Shown here: in pieces, positions 31,949 through 50,318 of the stretch
How positions within the stretch are numbered: the stretch's first letter is position 1
Layout of the letters: every line of letters begins with the position of its first letter
From: a virus
Lineage: Duplodnaviria; Caudoviricetes
IMG/VR virus record: IMGVR_UViG_3300030061_000751
Location: 1 to 57,402 of that record
Reading direction: 5' to 3' (one strand)
DNA length: 57,402 nt
Program-made: the position numbers and the translations under genes
The notes under the pieces: generated by a model
Seen by the model: the letters and a program-made list of their open reading frames with translations, nothing else
Told to the model about the DNA's origin: nothing
Database searches by the model: none

Positions 31949-32119
31949 CTACTCCTTGCAGTTCACATTAGTGTTGAAGTGAGGCCAGACACCTGACCCC
32001 ACCATTTCGCAGTAGTGGCGAGCATCAGCAATCTCCTGCTGATAGTCATCCTCCCCCACGATTCCTAGTGCCAGTACAATCAGCACGATAAAAACAAAAC
32101 CCTTGCGGCTGTCAGTCAT
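31949..32119 (-). CDS. Small membrane-anchored protein (56 aa; not in ORF track)
   Basis: MTDSRKGFVFIVLIVLALGIVGEDDYQQEIADARHYCEMVGSGVWPHFNTNVNCKE; ATGA-coupled. Confidence 0.65.
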   Translation of the reverse strand: MTDSRKGFVFIVLIVLALGIVGEDDYQQEIADARHYCEMVGSGVWPHFNTNVNCKE

Positions 32120-32673
32120 AATCTACTCTCCACTGGCACACCTTGATCATGCCAATGTGGGGGCCAACGCCGCCGACATATCTCTCGGTATGCGGGAATG
32201 TTCAGCTCGGCCTTTCGCCTGTACAGCATTGACATGATCAGACTTGGCTCCTCCTTGGATTTTTTTAGCCATTTACCCACAAGCCGCTCATGAAGTTTAA
32301 GATTGGAAATCAGTTTGGATAGAGATTGGCTGGGGGCATTAACAAAACCATCATCCCGTCCATCCCAGTCCCCCGTGACTGGTTTTGTAACCGCTCCCGC
32401 CTTGTTGAAGACTGGATACTCTGTGCGGATTGCTGTGCTTTCCGCGTCGAGAGCTGTGTTCCTGTCGGGATACCACTCCACGGTTATGTCACGGGCAGAA
32501 GCAAACCAGTCAGAAGAAGAGCTGTGATTGCTCAGTCGAGAGAACACGCTGAGTGATATGCCGACATAAAGCAGTTCGCCCTTCTCTGAGTAGGCCCGAT
32601 AAAGCGCAGTTCTCTCTGAGCTGATGTTGCGCCTTGGCTTTGATTGCTTTGGGCTTATCGCTACGTCAGTCAT
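32116..32673 (-). CDS. GIY-YIG nuclease family protein
   Basis: ALYRAY...LLYVGIS, RL..H, A..AE..AI....P.FN. Start moved to ATG 32673. Confidence 0.8.
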   Translation of the reverse strand: MTDVAISPKQSKPRRNISSERTALYRAYSEKGELLYVGISLSVFSRLSNHSSSSDWFASARDITVEWYPDRNTALDAESTAIRTEYPVFNKAGAVTKPVTGDWDGRDDGFVNAPSQSLSKLISNLKLHERLVGKWLKKSKEEPSLIMSMLYRRKAELNIPAYREICRRRWPPHWHDQGVPVESRL

Positions 32674-32944
32674 ATATCCAGCCCTCGTTGTGATCGTTGA
32701 TGTAGCAACCGCCAGTAACGACCAGCCCGTCTCGTAGGATGTCGGCCTCGCCTTCTGACATGACAACGTCAGCGTCAAACCCCAGCTTGTTGGCGGCTCT
32801 CCGCATGGCGCTCTCTGATCTGAGCACAGTGTCGATTGCGTTACCCACCTGCCAGATGGTGAAGGTAGGCTCCGGCATATCATCAGCCTCGGAGCAGTTG
32901 GGGTGGCAGTCGAACCTGCCGCATTCAGTGCATAATCTTTTCAT
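32666..32944 (-). CDS. Hypothetical protein with N-terminal Cys cluster
   Basis: RBS AGGAGG; CTECGRFDCHPNC. Confidence 0.65.
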   Translation of the reverse strand: MKRLCTECGRFDCHPNCSEADDMPEPTFTIWQVGNAIDTVLRSESAMRRAANKLGFDADVVMSEGEADILRDGLVVTGGCYINDHNEGWIYD

Positions 32945-32963: not shown

Positions 32964-33037
32964 TGGAAGGGCGAGCGGGGATCGAACCCGCCTATCTGGA
33001 TTTGCAGTCCAGTGCATAACCACTCTGCCACCGCCCT
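32964..33037 (-). tRNA. tRNA-Cys (GCA)
   Basis: 74-nt cloverleaf: acceptor AGGGCGG/UCGCCCU, anticodon arm CUGGA-CUGCAAA-UCCAG, T arm GCGGG-UUCGAUC-CCCGC, discriminator U, encoded CCA. Confidence 0.95.
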
Positions 33038-34635: not shown

Positions 34636-34836
34636 TTAACCGCGTTTGGATTTAAAGGGCGTCATATACTTGCGTTCTGACACCTTGACTCGCTTGCGTG
34701 AGCCGTCAGTCCAGCGGATGTGCATCCACTTAGGCCCAACTTTCTCAATACAGGCGACCCGTATCCCTCGATCAGTGTGATACCAAACCGGCTCCCATCC
34801 TCGGTTGAGGGCTTTGCGGTAGGTCAGGCTCTGCAT
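34636..34836 (-). CDS. Hypothetical protein (SH3-like pattern)
   Basis: Packed ORF followed by hairpin GGGGGC-N5-GCCCCC. Confidence 0.6.
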   Translation of the reverse strand: MQSLTYRKALNRGWEPVWYHTDRGIRVACIEKVGPKWMHIRWTDGSRKRVKVSERKYMTPFKSKRG

Positions 34837-35027
34837 ATCGAAACACTCACATAGCGATTCTCTGACCCTTCCTTCTGAATCACATAGTGGATGTGATCAG
34901 TCTCGACATCGCGCATGATTTGATAGATGACATCATCAATATCATCATCAGTCACGGTGTCCTTCAGAGTAACGTGATCGGTGTACTCCTCTGGGTGCTC
35001 TGCGGTGCTATACCAAAGCGTAGTCAT
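34824..35027 (-). CDS. Hypothetical protein (67 aa)
   Basis: ATG 35027 preceded by TGACTAAGGAGTCA. Confidence 0.65.
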   Translation of the reverse strand: MTTLWYSTAEHPEEYTDHVTLKDTVTDDDIDDVIYQIMRDVETDHIHYVIQKEGSENRYVSVSICRA

Positions 35028-35051
35028 GGTTGACTCCTTAGTCATTCGGGC

Positions 35052-35112
35052 GGATTCCCGATAGCCGCCGGAGCGGCTTTCACGCTGTATCCCTCAGCGA
35101 TCATCAGTCGGG
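35052..35112 (-). ncRNA. Type I hammerhead ribozyme (HHR-1) with loop II pseudoknot
   Basis: CCCGA CUGAUGA U CGCUG-AGGGAUA-CAGCG U GAA AGCCGC-UCCG-GCGGCU A^ UCGGG AAUCC; predicted cut between 35062 and 35061. Confidence 0.85.
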
Positions 35113-35475
35113 GCTGTCTGCGCCTCTTATGGGGTGTTTCCAGCCCAAGTGAGGTGAGGGTAAGTCCAAGCAGACATTGAACGTGCTATTGCCGCCGTGG
35201 CGCGGCCCCCAGCTTCTTTTGAGTGCAACGCTTCTCATGTGGAGCGGTTCAAGTTGGTGAAGCCGCTCCTCGAATGAATCCATAAAGGCGTTGTATTTTT
35301 TCCACTCGGCGTCTGTGGTGAAGGCTCGCCCAGTGCGCGAGGTGTCTGCCAGAATGTCTTGTATTTCCTCTCTGGCGCGGAGCACACCCTTGCGCTCATC
35401 GGCGTTGTCACATTTGTGAAGGGCATCCGCGAGGATGCGGCCTAGTGTTGCGGCGTTGGCTTTGCTGATATTCAT
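35104..35475 (-). CDS. Hypothetical protein; stop codon lies in the HHR-1 core
   Basis: SD motif GGCTAAGGAGTCA; ends ...CCC GAC TGA TGA. Confidence 0.65.
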   Translation of the reverse strand: MNISKANAATLGRILADALHKCDNADERKGVLRAREEIQDILADTSRTGRAFTTDAEWKKYNAFMDSFEERLHQLEPLHMRSVALKRSWGPRHGGNSTFNVCLDLPSPHLGWKHPIRGADSPD

Positions 35476-35492
35476 GGCTGACTCCTTAGCCG

Positions 35493-35669
35493 TTAGGCGT
35501 TCTCTACCATGTTTTCTTGAACGGACTTTATTAAAGCCAGTGCGCTCTCTACATGGGCCAGTAGGTGTTGATTGTTGATGTTAATGCTTTGATTCAGCAG
35601 TAATTCATCTACAAAAATCAACAGGTCTGTTCTCGCTTCGTCTAGCTTTGCAACGTGAGCGTTTGTCAT
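35493..35669 (-). CDS. Hypothetical protein (58 aa; not in ORF track)
   Basis: MTNAHVAKLDEARTDLLIFVDELLL...; SD motif TGACTAGGAGTCA. Confidence 0.65.
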   Translation of the reverse strand: MTNAHVAKLDEARTDLLIFVDELLLNQSININNQHLLAHVESALALIKSVQENMVENA

Positions 35670-35700
35670 GATTGACTCCTAGTCAGTGGGTGAAGGCCGC

Positions 35701-36597
35701 TTATGCGGCCTGTTGAAGTTCGACATCATCAGAGAATGAGTCGAGATGCTCGTATGCCGCCTGAGCTAGCTTGGCGGCGCGGTAGATGGCCTTGCTGTCA
35801 TCACGCAGAGCCTGCATCCAGCTCTTGAGGTAGATGGCATGGTCAGGGCGAGGTGTCTGCTCCAGACCGTGAGCCGCGCAGGCGAAGGTTGCAGTGAGTT
35901 CAGCGACCAATTCTTCGAACCCATAGTCGGCACTGCCAAACCTGCCAGATTGGTCACGGTCAAGCTGTGAGGTGTGGCCTGTTGCATGACCAAACTCATG
36001 AAACAGAGTGCCATACGCGGTGCAGGTTGCGGTGGCATCGCCGATGCTGACAAATGAATCGAAATCAGGCATCCCGATGTGGTGCAGGGCGGGGTTGTAG
36101 TAAGCGCCAGACTGCCCGTATTTGACAGCAGGCATCCCCATGCCCACCCGTGCATTCTCAAGCCACTGGTCAATCTCAGCGACACGCTCGACGGGGTTGA
36201 GCACTGGGGTGGCGTCCAGCTCGGGAGCGCCGTCTACCTGCTCGGCATTGAATACCGTGTACACCTTGGCAAACGGTATCTTTTTCTTTGAGCCGTCATC
36301 TTCTTCGATGTCGAGCATCTTAAAGAAGATGATCTTAGTGCCGCTCTCGCCCTTGCGGACCTGAGCATTGAGTGACTTCCACTGCTTGTAGGTAGCCCAG
36401 CGGGTATCGGTAAAGGTGGAGAGCATCATCAGCACGATCTGATTGATGCCCTTGTAGGCGTTGCCGCTGACAATGTTGGTCTGCAAGCCTGCGGAGGTGT
36501 TGGTGAAAAACGGCTTGGTGTAGTCGCTCAGGCTCACCTCTTCGAGCTGTGCCAATACGGTGTTGGTGACTACTTCATACGCTGTTTGCTTTGCCAT
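35701..36597 (-). CDS. ardC: ArdC-family antirestriction protein (ssDNA-binding domain plus zincin metallopeptidase-like domain)
   Basis: Y.GIN, WATYKQW...A.VRKGE.G, YTVFNAEQ, AYY.P..H.I.MP, HEFGHATGH..L.R, Y..EELVAE, HA.YL.SW...L..D. Start moved to ATG 36597. Confidence 0.92.
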   Translation of the reverse strand: MAKQTAYEVVTNTVLAQLEEVSLSDYTKPFFTNTSAGLQTNIVSGNAYKGINQIVLMMLSTFTDTRWATYKQWKSLNAQVRKGESGTKIIFFKMLDIEEDDGSKKKIPFAKVYTVFNAEQVDGAPELDATPVLNPVERVAEIDQWLENARVGMGMPAVKYGQSGAYYNPALHHIGMPDFDSFVSIGDATATCTAYGTLFHEFGHATGHTSQLDRDQSGRFGSADYGFEELVAELTATFACAAHGLEQTPRPDHAIYLKSWMQALRDDSKAIYRAAKLAQAAYEHLDSFSDDVELQQAA

Positions 36598-36623
36598 GAT
36601 CGGTGACTCCTCAGTCATCAGGG

Positions 36624-36686
36624 TGGATTCCCATGACGCCCCGTGGGGCGTTTCGGCCTGTATCCAGCAGGCCATCATCAGATGGG
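36624..36686 (-). ncRNA. Type I hammerhead ribozyme (HHR-2) with loop II pseudoknot
   Basis: CCCAU CUGAUGA U GGCCUG-CUGGAUA-CAGGCC GAA ACGCCC-CACG-GGGCGU C^ AUGGG AAUCCA; predicted cut between 36635 and 36634. Confidence 0.92.
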
Positions 36687-37076
36687 TTAGGCGGCGTCCA
36701 CTTCGACACCTTCATAGGTATCAGCGAACACGGTACGCACAGCGGCCTGCGAGGCTTTAGCCTCAGACCATCTGCGCTTCTTCGCGGCGTGCTTTGGGGT
36801 GCGGGTGCGACTGAACTGCACCGGCTTCAGCGGATCGTCGGTGTAGCTGTCATCATCAACCTTGCCATACAGGCCGCGATGATCAGCAATCCACGCGCCG
36901 TCATACTCGGTGACATCGTAGATTGCAGAGTAGATGTTGACCTCGGACAGATCGTAGTAGGTAGTCCAATCTGTCAAGGCCATGAGCATCTGCTCGACTG
37001 CCTCGCACGGTGTGTCACCGTATCCCCATGAAGAACCGCCGCCGATTGAAACGAAAGAAAGGTATTGCGTTTTCAT
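36687..37076 (-). CDS. Hypothetical protein (first early ORF)
   Basis: SD motif TGACTGAGGAGTCA; its stop abuts HHR-2 stem I. Confidence 0.7.
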   Translation of the reverse strand: MKTQYLSFVSIGGGSSWGYGDTPCEAVEQMLMALTDWTTYYDLSEVNIYSAIYDVTEYDGAWIADHRGLYGKVDDDSYTDDPLKPVQFSRTRTPKHAAKKRRWSEAKASQAAVRTVFADTYEGVEVDAA

Positions 37077-37096
37077 ATTTGACTCCTCAGTCAGTT

Positions 37097-37390
37097 ATGA
37101 GTGGGGTTGAGCGAAAGTGCTCACGCATACCCAACGCGCTCGGCGGTGGGCATGGTGTGAAAACTCTCTGATCAGCCACTCCACCCTACAGCGCAGGTAT
37201 GGGATAGCTGATGCATCAATGCGGGGTCAGTGATGCGCTGACTGTCACCCTGCTGGTAGGCATGAGGTGCCGCTTGCTTGCTCAAGACAGGACGGCTTGA
37301 ATCGCCCCGAAGTTGGCCGTGTGGTTTGTAGGCCCACCCCTGCGGGCGTAAGGTGCCCCGTATCCCCCAACCTCGTTATCAGGTTGGTGT
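37097..37390 (-). ncRNA. Candidate large multi-pseudoknot structured RNA (~290 nt)
   Basis: No ORF in the track; about 12 nested stems and 6 crossing pairings identified by hand (see findings). Confidence 0.75.
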
Positions 37391-37394
37391 GGTA

Positions 37395-37423
37395 ACGCTA
37401 CAGGATGCAAAGTCATAAAACAA
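37395..37423 (-). promoter_or_regulatory. Candidate sigma70 promoter for the early transcript
   Basis: TTGTTT-17 nt-TAGCGT; predicted start falls just before the first hairpin of the RNA. Confidence 0.4.
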
Positions 37424-37498
37424 CACCCTGAGACAAATGATTTTCAGACAAGTCTTATGACTATATATAGCAAATTAAATTGCGAGCAGTGGGGAAAG

Positions 37499-37586
37499 GT
37501 GTTGACACAGTGATGAGAAGTGTGATTGCGATCATGAATCACGTAAGTCATTGATATGTCAGGAATTAAAAAGTGTTGACAAAGTG
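37499..37586. promoter_or_regulatory. Direct repeat GTGTTGACA(C/A)AGTG x2
   Basis: Copies at 37499-37512 and 37573-37586, each containing TTGACA. Confidence 0.55.
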
Positions 37587-37603
37587 TAATTTACCAAAAA
37601 ACA

Positions 37604-48843: not shown

Positions 48844-49752
48844 ATGGCTATTTCACGCGCACAAATGTTGAAAGAATTACTGCCCGGTTTGAACGCCTTA
48901 TTTGGGTTGGAATACGAGCGGTACGACGACGAGCACACGATGATTTACGAAACTGAATCATCTGAGCGTTCGTTCGAGGAAGAGGTAAAGCTGTCCGGCT
49001 TTGGTGCCGCACCAGTTAAAGCTGAAGGCGCCGCCATCAGCTATGACTCGGCGCAAGAGTCGTTCACTGCTCGCTATAACCACGAAACGATTGCTCTCGG
49101 CTTCTCCATCACAGAAGAAGCAATGGAGGACAATCTATATGACTCATTGTCAGCAAGATATACAAAAGCTCTTGCAAGGGCAATGGCACACACCAAGCAG
49201 GTGAAGTCAGCGAATCCGTTGAACAACGGTTTCAACACCTTCCAATCTGGTGACGGCGTAACGCTGTTCAGCACGGCTCACCCGCTGGTAAACGGTGGCA
49301 CCAACGCCAACCGTCCTACCACTGCGGCTGATCTGAACGAAACCTCACTGGAAGATGCTGTGATTAACATCGCCGCATTTACCGATGAGCGTGGACTGCT
49401 GATCGCGGCTCGCCCCCGTCGTTTGATTGTTCCCCCCGCACTTCAGTTTGTAGCAACTCGTTTGCTTGAGACTGAAGGTCGAGTCGGAACTGCTGACAAC
49501 GACATCAACGCCCTTCGCAACAACGGGTCAATTCCAGAAGGCTACTCTGTCAATCACTTCCTGACTGACACCAACGCCTTCTTCGTGATCACTGATGTAC
49601 CGAACGGCATGAAGCACTTCGACAGAACGGCGTTGGAGACTTCAATGGATGGCGACTTTGATACGGGCAACGTCCGTTACAAAGCCCGTGAAAGATACAG
49701 CTTCGGCGTATCTGATCCACTCGGAATTTACGGCTCGCCCGGAACTTCCTAA
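48844..49752 (+). CDS. Major capsid protein (HK97 fold; Mu gpT-like)
   Basis: MAISRAQ..KEL.PGLNALFG.EY, LIVPP.L, K.RERYSFG..D; strong RBS; followed by a terminator. Confidence 0.9.
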   Translation: MAISRAQMLKELLPGLNALFGLEYERYDDEHTMIYETESSERSFEEEVKLSGFGAAPVKAEGAAISYDSAQESFTARYNHETIALGFSITEEAMEDNLYDSLSARYTKALARAMAHTKQVKSANPLNNGFNTFQSGDGVTLFSTAHPLVNGGTNANRPTTAADLNETSLEDAVINIAAFTDERGLLIAARPRRLIVPPALQFVATRLLETEGRVGTADNDINALRNNGSIPEGYSVNHFLTDTNAFFVITDVPNGMKHFDRTALETSMDGDFDTGNVRYKARERYSFGVSDPLGIYGSPGTS

Positions 49753-49779: not shown

Positions 49780-49835
49780 CCCTGACTAATTGTTCCATGT
49801 GGAACATTAGACACTAGCCACGACAGGAGAATCAC

Positions 49836-50318
49836 ATGGCTAATACTACATTCAGCGGTGCTGTCCGCTCTGAAAATGGTTTTTCAGATATCACCAAAAA
49901 TTCCACTACTGGCTCTATTACCAGCACCATGACGTTATCCACCTACGAGGCGACGATTACCGTGGCTAATGGTGCAACGACAGGTAAGGAAGCCGCTATT
50001 GGCATCCCCTCAAACTTTATCCCTATGGGTGTGTTGGTCGCTGTTACCACAGCTTCTGCTAACTCCGTCAACCTTAACGATATTGGCACCGATGCAGACA
50101 CTGACGGCTTTGTCGATGGTATCTCTGCCGCTGTTAACTCTACGGGCTTCAAAGGGTTTTTCCCCTGCAATGGCGTTCTCGGGATGTCCGGTGGCACAAC
50201 CACTGCGTCTACAGAAACAGCAGACGAAGTAGAGATTGTGCTTTCTGGCGATCCGGGTGGCGACACAGTTGTTGTCCTCAAGTTTTTCGGCATCTCTACC
50301 ACTTCAGACGCATCATAA
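49836..50318 (+). CDS. Virion structural protein
   Basis: MANTTFSG.VRS.NGF start; T/S/G-rich. Confidence 0.65.
   Translation: MANTTFSGAVRSENGFSDITKNSTTGSITSTMTLSTYEATITVANGATTGKEAAIGIPSNFIPMGVLVAVTTASANSVNLNDIGTDADTDGFVDGISAAVNSTGFKGFFPCNGVLGMSGGTTTASTETADEVEIVLSGDPGGDTVVVLKFFGISTTSDAS

Follow-up and report, generated by a model that had tools for sequence, protein, structure and literature searches.

Paired type-I hammerhead motifs between the cistrons of an ardC-containing phage operon

Two hammerhead motifs in a leftward phage operon

We examined a 57,402-nucleotide (nt) stretch of viral DNA, positions 1 to 57,402 of the IMG/VR virus record IMGVR_UViG_3300030061_000751, and refer to this whole stretch as the window. 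Our subject is a pair of hammerhead ribozyme motifs, HHR-1 and HHR-2, that lie on either side of the anti-restriction gene ardC and two smaller genes. The record belongs to a 98%-complete tailed double-stranded DNA (dsDNA) phage, in which the hammerheads sit within a leftward operon of small genes. Reading the minus strand, we found both to be complete type-I hammerhead motifs, sense to this operon, and their predicted cuts fall 1,573 nt apart on its coding strand (Table 1). The predicted product of ardC is a clear ArdC, with an N-terminal single-stranded DNA-binding domain and a C-terminal zincin-like metallopeptidase domain containing HExxH (Pfam ArdcN, 6.5e-30, and MPTase-PolyVal, 2.9e-35; PHROG 7245, anti-restriction protein, 2.7e-67).

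Table 1. Features of the hammerhead-containing part of the operon. Coordinates are those of the window; aa, amino acids; bp, base pairs; SD, Shine-Dalgarno sequence; R1, the family model described in the text.
Feature	Coordinates	Strand	Description
HHR-2	36625..36686	-	type-I hammerhead with loop II / 3'-tail pseudoknot; predicted cut after C36635; 93.0 bits with R1, seed member
HHR-1	35052..35112	-	type-I hammerhead of the same family; predicted cut after A35062; 75.6 bits with R1, seed member
Predicted excised RNA	35062..36634	-	1,573 nt, ardC-orf58-orf123; follows from the two cut sites
HHR-2 candidate post-cleavage hairpin	36619..36634	-	GGG / CCC, loop AAUCCA, 3 bp; competes with stem I
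HHR-1 post-cleavage hairpin (predicted)	35046..35061	-	UCGGG / CCCGA, loop AAUCCG, 5 bp; 5' end of the 3' product
orf129	36687..37076	-	upstream of HHR-2; TAA stop at 36689-36687 abuts HHR-2 stem I; no Pfam or PHROG match
SD hairpin of ardC	36604..36617	-	UGACU-GAGG-AGUCA
ardC	35701..36597	-	298 aa; HEFGH metallopeptidase motif; AUG 37 nt past the HHR-2 cut
orf58	35493..35669	-	small protein; no family match (Pfam, PHROG)
orf123	35104..35475	-	UGA stop at 35106-35104 lies within the HHR-1 core CUGAUGA, as its first UGA; neither Pfam nor PHROG gave a match
Next cistron	34824..35027	-	67 aa; SD-preceded AUG 34 nt past the HHR-1 cut; 73-aa form without family match

We compared both sites with the core of the hammerhead class: C3, U4, G5, A6, N7, G8 and A9, then G12, A13 and A14, an A15.1-U16.1 pair, and H17 at the cut. 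The invariant positions (CUGAUGA, GAAA and the closing A-U pair) are all intact in both, and position 17 is not G in either, since the cut is preceded by UC in HHR-2 and by UA in HHR-1. Stem I of HHR-2 is formed by a 5' strand CCCAU (36686-36682) and a 3' strand AUGGG (36634-36630). Its core CUGAUGA (36681-36675) is followed by one extra U, a 6-bp stem II with the loop CUGGAUA, GAAA, and a stem III of 5 bp plus the A15.1-U16.1 pair, and GGAU of loop II can form a pseudoknot with the tail AUCC (36628-36625). HHR-1 pairs CCCGA (35112-35108) with UCGGG (35061-35057) around the core CUGAUGA (35107-35101), and a 5-bp stem II precedes GAAA and a stem III of 5 bp plus the A-U pair; the tail AUCC (35055-35052), one base beyond stem I, can likewise pair with GGAU of loop II. 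HHR-1 represents a variant subclass, with a U.U at 10.1/11.1 flanking stem II, G-C as the first stem III pair, and predicted cleavage after UA. The 10.1/11.1 pair next to the core is G-C in HHR-2, but the extra U follows A9 there. Both tails read GGGAAUCC.

Chance does not account for the two motifs in the window. The pattern CTGATGA..GAAA..GGAATCC has two matches against 0.01 expected, and none of 100 dinucleotide shuffles contained two or more. A full type-I descriptor returned exactly HHR-1 and HHR-2, whereas 200 mononucleotide shuffles gave a mean of 0.015 matches and a maximum of 1.

The Rfam families Hammerhead_1 (RF00163) and Hammerhead_II (RF02276) describe the same ribozyme class as the window sites, with the core CUGANGA ... 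GAAA ... UH. At the gathering score, however, an Rfam 15 scan reported neither HHR-1 nor HHR-2. In E-value mode HHR-2 reached 20.6 bits with Hammerhead_II (gathering score 37), in the wrong register, and 12.3 bits with Hammerhead_1 (gathering score 34), and HHR-1 had no hammerhead match at all. We rejected the Hammerhead_II register of HHR-2, which borrows a fortuitous second CUGAUGA at 36621-36615 that has no stem II partner. With scores below gathering or absent for both families (clan CL00010), the subfamily escapes standard annotation, and work based on Rfam will in practice overlook it. A second trap concerns ardC itself: an in-frame ATG at 36678, inside the HHR-2 core, stretches its open reading frame (ORF) to 325 aa and misleads ORF callers, whereas the SD-preceded start is at 36597. 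No named phage matched the 1.9-kb region at the nucleotide level.

The ribozyme family and its intercistronic module

We collected relatives from IMG/VR by two pattern scans followed by the type-I descriptor as a filter, screening 219 loci in all (numbered below with the prefix L). The first, loose viral pattern hit at least 115 stretches, mostly by chance, and beyond the window's two sites only L006 and L081 qualified among the matches listed. A tighter pattern did better, and over both scans the descriptor was passed by at least 32 sites, spread over 29 of these 219 loci, two of the 29 being the window's own sites. A pattern scan of genome contigs, where the descriptor was passed by 0 of 120 loci among the matches listed, taught us nothing about hosts or prophages.

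The 25 unique descriptor-selected sequences were aligned with MAFFT (alignment A1). Core columns are invariant or nearly so across the 25 sequences. The hammerhead and pseudoknot positions are paired in 97.5% of cells, against 28-49% in slid controls, and 12 of the 21 pairs have changed on both sides, a level reached in none of 500 shuffles, although these figures are inflated because the descriptor required pairing. Since the A1 sequences had been selected in this way, we also ran RNAalifold on a plain MAFFT alignment, which returned the same three stems and three-way junction with 12 of 15 pairs compensatory.

A model built from a seed that includes HHR-1 and HHR-2 (R1) found only these two seed sites in the window with filters off, the next match scoring 9.9 bits. 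Over all, R1 gave 56 matches, 43 of them distinct, in 28 hammerhead-bearing viral loci and the window, many of which the descriptor had missed. In the wider alignment of R1 matches (A2), which was fitted to the model and whose statistics therefore lean towards it, 96.7% of cells are paired and 17 of 21 pairs carry double changes. Cognate stem I pairs in 100% of A2 cells. The pseudoknot, which is invariant in A1 (GGAU with AUCC in 25 of 25 sequences), covaries in A2, with double changes in three of its four pairs and 92.1% of cells paired. Such compensatory evolution in three stems and a pseudoknot points to selection on the RNA fold and not on DNA identity alone. Judged from these alignments, HHR-1 and HHR-2 are genuine hammerhead motifs from a single covarying family, of which 20 of the 29 sources carry two to three same-strand copies, 307-2,754 nt apart.

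The spacing from stop codon to stem I, and from cut to start codon, shows that the ribozyme holds a fixed slot between two cistrons. Among the 42 unique sites examined, 41 have an upstream frame of at least 45 codons, and in 36 of these its stop lies within -9 to +3 nt of stem I; in 5 of 41, HHR-1 included, the first UGA of the core is itself the upstream stop codon. On the other side, a downstream gene follows at 41 of the unique sites, and the distance from the cut to its SD-preceded start is 34-41 nt at 31 of them, 52-55 nt at eight, 26 nt at one and 75 nt at one.

Before five operon genes on the minus strand (34401, 35032, 35674, 36605 and 37081) we found a palindromic motif, (U)GACU-nAGG-AGUC(A), which is predicted to form a 5-bp hairpin with the SD in or next to its loop. 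The pattern GACTN(0-3)GGAGTC has six matches in the window against 0.41 expected, five of them within the hammerhead operon. In L006 the stem of the SD hairpin is changed on both sides (UCACU..AGUGA).

Just beyond the pseudoknot tail the 5' strand of stem I recurs, as in ACGGG-AAUCCA-CCCG, so that after cleavage the stem I 3' strand could fold back on this repeat. Neither the descriptor nor the R1 base pairs select for this helix. It is nevertheless paired in 83.2% of cells in A1, against 65.3% in shuffles and 34-48% in slid controls, and in 76.7% against 59.6% in A2, where its covariation is 0.426 against 0.162 and none of 500 shuffles scored as high. At HHR-1, the new 5' end left by cleavage is predicted to adopt this hairpin. 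Before cleavage, and leaving the pseudoknot aside, the hammerhead and the alternative fold are near-isoenergetic by computed free energy, at -26.3 versus -26.4 kcal/mol for HHR-2 and -24.2 versus -25.8 kcal/mol for HHR-1. We considered that the repeat might have arisen as a target-site duplication and rejected this origin, which would not make the repeat covary with the stem I 3' strand.

As far as can be read from the related genomes, clustering of hammerheads is a trait of the family, and the genes that they bracket vary. In the closest relative, L178 (85-90% nucleotide identity), two homologous hammerheads, the only copies in the whole record, lie 410 nt apart and bracket just the homologue of orf123 (78% identity over 77 aa; a Protein Atlas search with orf123 gave no usable match). 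The ArdC of L178 is 36% identical to that of the window and is encoded by the first gene after the leader, with two more genes before any hammerhead. The L006 record (58 kb, 99% complete) has a single hammerhead, a homologue of HHR-2, with an orf58 homologue directly after it (40% identity, E 1e-11) and no ardC at the hammerhead position. In L143 the gene for an ArdC 53% identical to that of the window comes first after an AT-rich promoter-like region, followed by 38 nt, a hammerhead, an orf129 homologue that again precedes a hammerhead, and in all two more hammerhead-gene units. Exact bracketing of ardC occurs in L183, whose ArdC is 68% identical to that of L178 and whose two hammerheads are 982 nt apart. 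Among 29 non-redundant genes immediately downstream of a hammerhead, two encode ArdC, two DUF6011 and one an AAA ATPase; Pfam matches none of the others. A preliminary description of this DNA had treated the two hammerheads as a pair belonging to ardC, one that relatives might keep; in L178, L143 and L006 paired hammerheads around ardC are not conserved. An ArdC-based search added nine distant loci (33-42% identity), none of which had an R1 match, and these say little because their phage background is different.

Proposed processing of the operon transcript and alternative readings

We favor a reading in which HHR-1 and HHR-2 are active hammerheads that constitutively process a polycistronic early or accessory transcript, between its cistrons, into discrete mRNAs, and we put the probability of this reading at roughly 0.7. 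From the motifs, their family and its covariation, the module geometry and the gene context, we infer that both sites cleave, that a single transcript spans them, and that cleavage has a stabilizing or insulating effect. One long transcript would start in the AT-rich region near 37,400-37,600 and pass through a structured leader of ~320 nt; on the minus strand from 38,543 to 31,138 we found no terminator-like sites. HHR-2 and HHR-1 would cut this transcript into a leader-orf129 RNA, the 1,573-nt ardC-orf58-orf123 RNA, and an RNA of the downstream small genes. Hammerhead cleavage leaves 5'-OH and 2',3'-cyclic phosphate ends. The 3' end of each upstream product would consist of the two G+C-rich hairpins of the ribozyme, terminating in a 2',3'-cyclic phosphate, and each downstream product would start with a 5'-OH. 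As stem I falls apart, the downstream product would fold its first 16 nt into the small hairpin, trapping the cleaved state and providing a defined, structured 5' untranslated region of ~35-40 nt before the hairpin-presented SD. The outcome would be separate mRNAs whose stability and translation are independent of the neighboring cistrons.

Several observations weigh against this reading. The U.U at 10.1/11.1 of HHR-1 is non-canonical, and according to passages in the text of Perreault et al. 2011 (PMC3088659), candidates mispaired at this position were rejected from their survey; HHR-1 may cleave slowly owing to this mispair. An extra U stands between A9 and stem II in HHR-2 and in most family members. 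The post-cleavage hairpin has its outermost pair unpaired in 23 of 42 scored distinct sequences, a few members have no such hairpin, and the copy after HHR-2 in the window is weak, at 3 bp. The pairing statistics carry the selection noted above for A1 and A2, and a sigma-70 scan gave nothing in the expected promoter region. Finally, the cleavage, the extent of the transcript and the effects on stability are deduced from the DNA sequence.

The alternative hairpin might instead make each module a conditional switch, in which this hairpin, and ribosomes that terminate 0-3 nt before stem I or, at HHR-1, within the core, set the cleaved fraction and thereby couple processing to translation or physiological state. 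We consider such regulation unlikely. The competing folds do differ by no more than 1.6 kcal/mol without the pseudoknot, but a product trap or a 5' cap-like structure would account for the hairpin just as well. With its stop codon within the HHR-1 core, orf123 would place a terminating ribosome on the 5' half of the ribozyme, and upstream frames end close to stem I throughout the family; this tight packing, however, may be mere genome economy. Passages in Perreault et al. 2011 (PMC3088659) suggest regulated cleavage for slower phage variants, but a ligand-binding or sensor element is not evident here.

The modules might also matter chiefly as DNA. Hammerhead islands that are 81-97% alike between the window and L178, L006, L204, L349 and L350 stand beside one or both flanks that are non-homologous, and the ardC and orf58 genes (~1.1 kb) that the window has in addition to L178 begin directly after the HHR-2 module. 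In this reading the conserved ~110-nt module of hammerhead and ribosome-binding site would persist mainly as a portable linker, at which homologous recombination exchanges accessory cassettes such as ardC between phages, with RNA cleavage secondary. One site in L350 (2501-2589, minus strand, 69.3 bits) is a hybrid hammerhead, in which the stem I 5' strand, CCCAU, resembles that of HHR-2 and the body, with the 3' strand UCGGG, is that of HHR-1. Two of its five stem I pairs are broken, and its sequence hints at DNA recombination between hammerheads, within the modules. A role as a linker first and a ribozyme second nevertheless seems quite improbable to us, as the compensatory evolution in three stems and the pseudoknot reflects selection on the RNA fold.

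The preliminary description had gone further than processing and raised the possibility that the ends of the 1,573-nt ardC RNA meet in a chimeric hammerhead, where the ribozyme or host RtcB would join them into an exonuclease-resistant circular mRNA. Its premise holds up. Two same-polarity hammerheads with complete cores, three helices, sense orientation and a covarying family would, by double cleavage, release the ardC-orf58-orf123 RNA, and our coordinates agree with the distances given (36634 to 35062, or 1,573 nt; 37 nt from the HHR-2 cut to the ardC AUG at 36597; 42 nt from the orf123 stop at 35106-35104 to the HHR-1 cut). The step from this RNA to a circle is very doubtful, and linear processing, which the same description had named as the simpler alternative, is the better reading. 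The 5'-OH and 2',3'-cyclic phosphate ends are of the kind established to suit RtcB, which needs proximity only. The chimeric stem I of CCCGA with AUGGG also has three G-C pairs and one G.U, or four of five pairs, and retains the GGAU/AUCC pseudoknot, as both tails are alike. However, its A.A mismatch lies at 1.1/2.1, adjoining the scissile or ligation site. The suggestion that the weakened chimera would favor ligation over re-cleavage does not follow, since both reactions would use the same active fold and ligation would be slowed as much as cleavage. Mispairing at 1.1/2.1 was, in passages of Perreault et al. 2011 (PMC3088659), a criterion for rejection.

The wider family offers little more for a circle. 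Across 27 pairs of neighboring hammerheads, which reduce to 11 distinct combinations, the chimeric stem I would have five of five pairs in three combinations, four of five in three and two of five in five, in contrast to the complete pairing of cognate stems. With cross-complementarity of neighboring stems I not conserved, circles through a rebuilt hammerhead are unsupported, even though a perfect chimera is possible in those three combinations and the exactly bracketed ardC of L183 would have a fully paired chimeric stem I. The covarying hairpin would compete for the 5' end of the 3' product, although after HHR-2 in the window this competitor has only 3 bp. In L143 and L178 ardC is promoter-proximal and has no upstream hammerhead, so its message there would start with a triphosphate and could not owe both ends to ribozymes. 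L006, from a 99%-complete relative, shows one hammerhead and no ardC at that position, and elsewhere the bracketed segments hold varied genes, ArdC accounting for 2 of the 29 downstream ones. All four metagenome contigs in which the 3' half of HHR-1 was found continue genomically and not into the predicted junction, which is weak evidence against a circle only, because these contigs are probably DNA. According to passages in Perreault et al. 2011 (PMC3088659), circular or spliced products of hammerhead clusters were considered there and none was detected (data not shown). In our literature search no phage study linking a hammerhead with ArdC was evident, and none linking hammerhead ribozyme, prophage, RtcB and circular.

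Least probable of all, one or both motifs could be inactive relics in an operon expressed as an ordinary polycistronic mRNA, as the U.U of HHR-1 and the lack of recognition of either site by Rfam models at gathering score might suggest; but the invariant core positions are intact in both sites, the U.U variant recurs in L150:518 on stems unrelated to those of HHR-1, which suggests that it is tolerated, and the HHR-1 ribozyme is identical in L178 despite diverged flanks, with its 3'-terminal 32 nt matched exactly in four metagenome contigs.

We noted several further features of the phage. A non-coding leader of ~320 nt (37077-37400, minus strand) lies between the AT-rich promoter-like region and orf129; its predicted fold has a free energy of -130.9 kcal/mol (z = -3.98 versus shuffles), and it is 77-84% conserved in L178, L006 and L350, with no Rfam match at gathering score. 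Farther along the same leftward gene string is a tRNA gene (32967-33037, minus strand, 60.7 bits) that is 97% conserved in L178 and L352, and after it a 255-aa ORF (32116-32883, minus strand) with a weak Pfam match to GIY-YIG and clearer PHROG endonuclease matches. From ~37.8 kb the plus strand carries genes for the large terminase (TerL), the portal and the head, and the phage also encodes a primase-helicase, an exonuclease and a Sak-like annealing protein. TerL is ~59% identical to that of environmental and Pelagibacter phages. An Rfam match to Mu-gpT-DE RNA (49780-49838, plus strand, 51.8 bits, gathering score 49) extends to the start codon of an ORF (49836-50318) that directly follows a head-protein-like gene (48844-49752). 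We rejected the identification as a Mu-like phage that this match might suggest, given the three replication and recombination proteins just named and a TerL nearest to those of aquatic phages.

Comparison with known systems

The layout in the window resembles that of retrozymes and viroid-like circular RNAs, in which two same-polarity hammerheads likewise set free an RNA whose 5'-OH and 2',3'-cyclic phosphate termini a ligase could join. Those RNAs are mostly non-coding, their near-identical repeated ribozymes rebuild a perfect hammerhead, and the circles have been observed. By contrast, the window segment would be a 1.6-kb three-gene bacterial mRNA whose two ribozymes differ and leave an A.A at the junction-proximal pair. 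The hallmark of retrozymes, excised ends that rebuild a fully paired hammerhead, is thus absent from the window and present in 3 of the 11 distinct combinations. If a circle did form, it would be a translatable circular anti-restriction mRNA made by a DNA phage.

The closest precedent is the work of Perreault et al. 2011 (PMC3088659), whose text passages describe prophage genes flanked by several hammerheads, in one case with three of them arranged around ardA. These passages report cleavage in vitro for three such clusters and cleavage in vivo for an Agrobacterium tumefaciens ardA fragment cloned and transcribed in Escherichia coli, and they propose processing into operon- or gene-length mRNAs. 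In the passages of a 2019 review, a role in mRNA processing is the leading but unproven idea, for which additional work is needed. As in the prophages of Perreault et al., same-orientation hammerheads flank single genes or short blocks in the window phage, a pseudoknot provides the tertiary contact between stem I and stem II, and an anti-restriction gene lies immediately downstream of a hammerhead. Unlike in the arrangements described there, the gene in the window is ardC and not ardA, the phage is an environmental contig, and the family is entirely type I and a single subfamily, with an invariant loop II GGAUA and a GGAAUCC tail.

Earlier publications already contain this class of element, its clustered layout, its connection to anti-restriction genes and the circle hypothesis. 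What may be new is the subfamily missed by Rfam, the strict geometry of its modules, the covarying hairpin that would form after cleavage, and a cassette-like shuffling of the genes around them. The hairpin and the fixed spacing of stop codon, hammerhead, hairpin, SD and AUG set these modules apart from those of Perreault et al. 2011 (PMC3088659) as far as its text passages go, and the supplementary alignments of that study may include the subfamily. The phage group offers a clean, testable system: a single subfamily occupies a constant position after the stop codon and before the ribosome-binding site, operons hold one to three copies of it, and natural variants occur with and without ardC and with and without an upstream ribozyme.

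A further likeness is to RiboJ, a synthetic insulator described in passages of PMC8794103 as the sTRSV hammerhead followed by a 23-nt hairpin. There, as proposed here, the hammerhead removes the upstream context and the hairpin after the cut gives a structured 5' end before the ribosome-binding site. RiboJ was engineered from a plant satellite ribozyme and its body stays on the downstream RNA, whereas in the window the type-I topology would leave the body with the upstream product, and one strand of the hairpin is the stem I 3' strand used a second time. The likeness is one of mechanism and not of membership, with the window modules as a natural counterpart. If the hairpin does trap the cleaved state and cap the new 5' end, it would explain how clean, stable, gene-length mRNAs arise from a reversible ribozyme, and would provide a natural precedent for the ribozyme insulators of synthetic biology.

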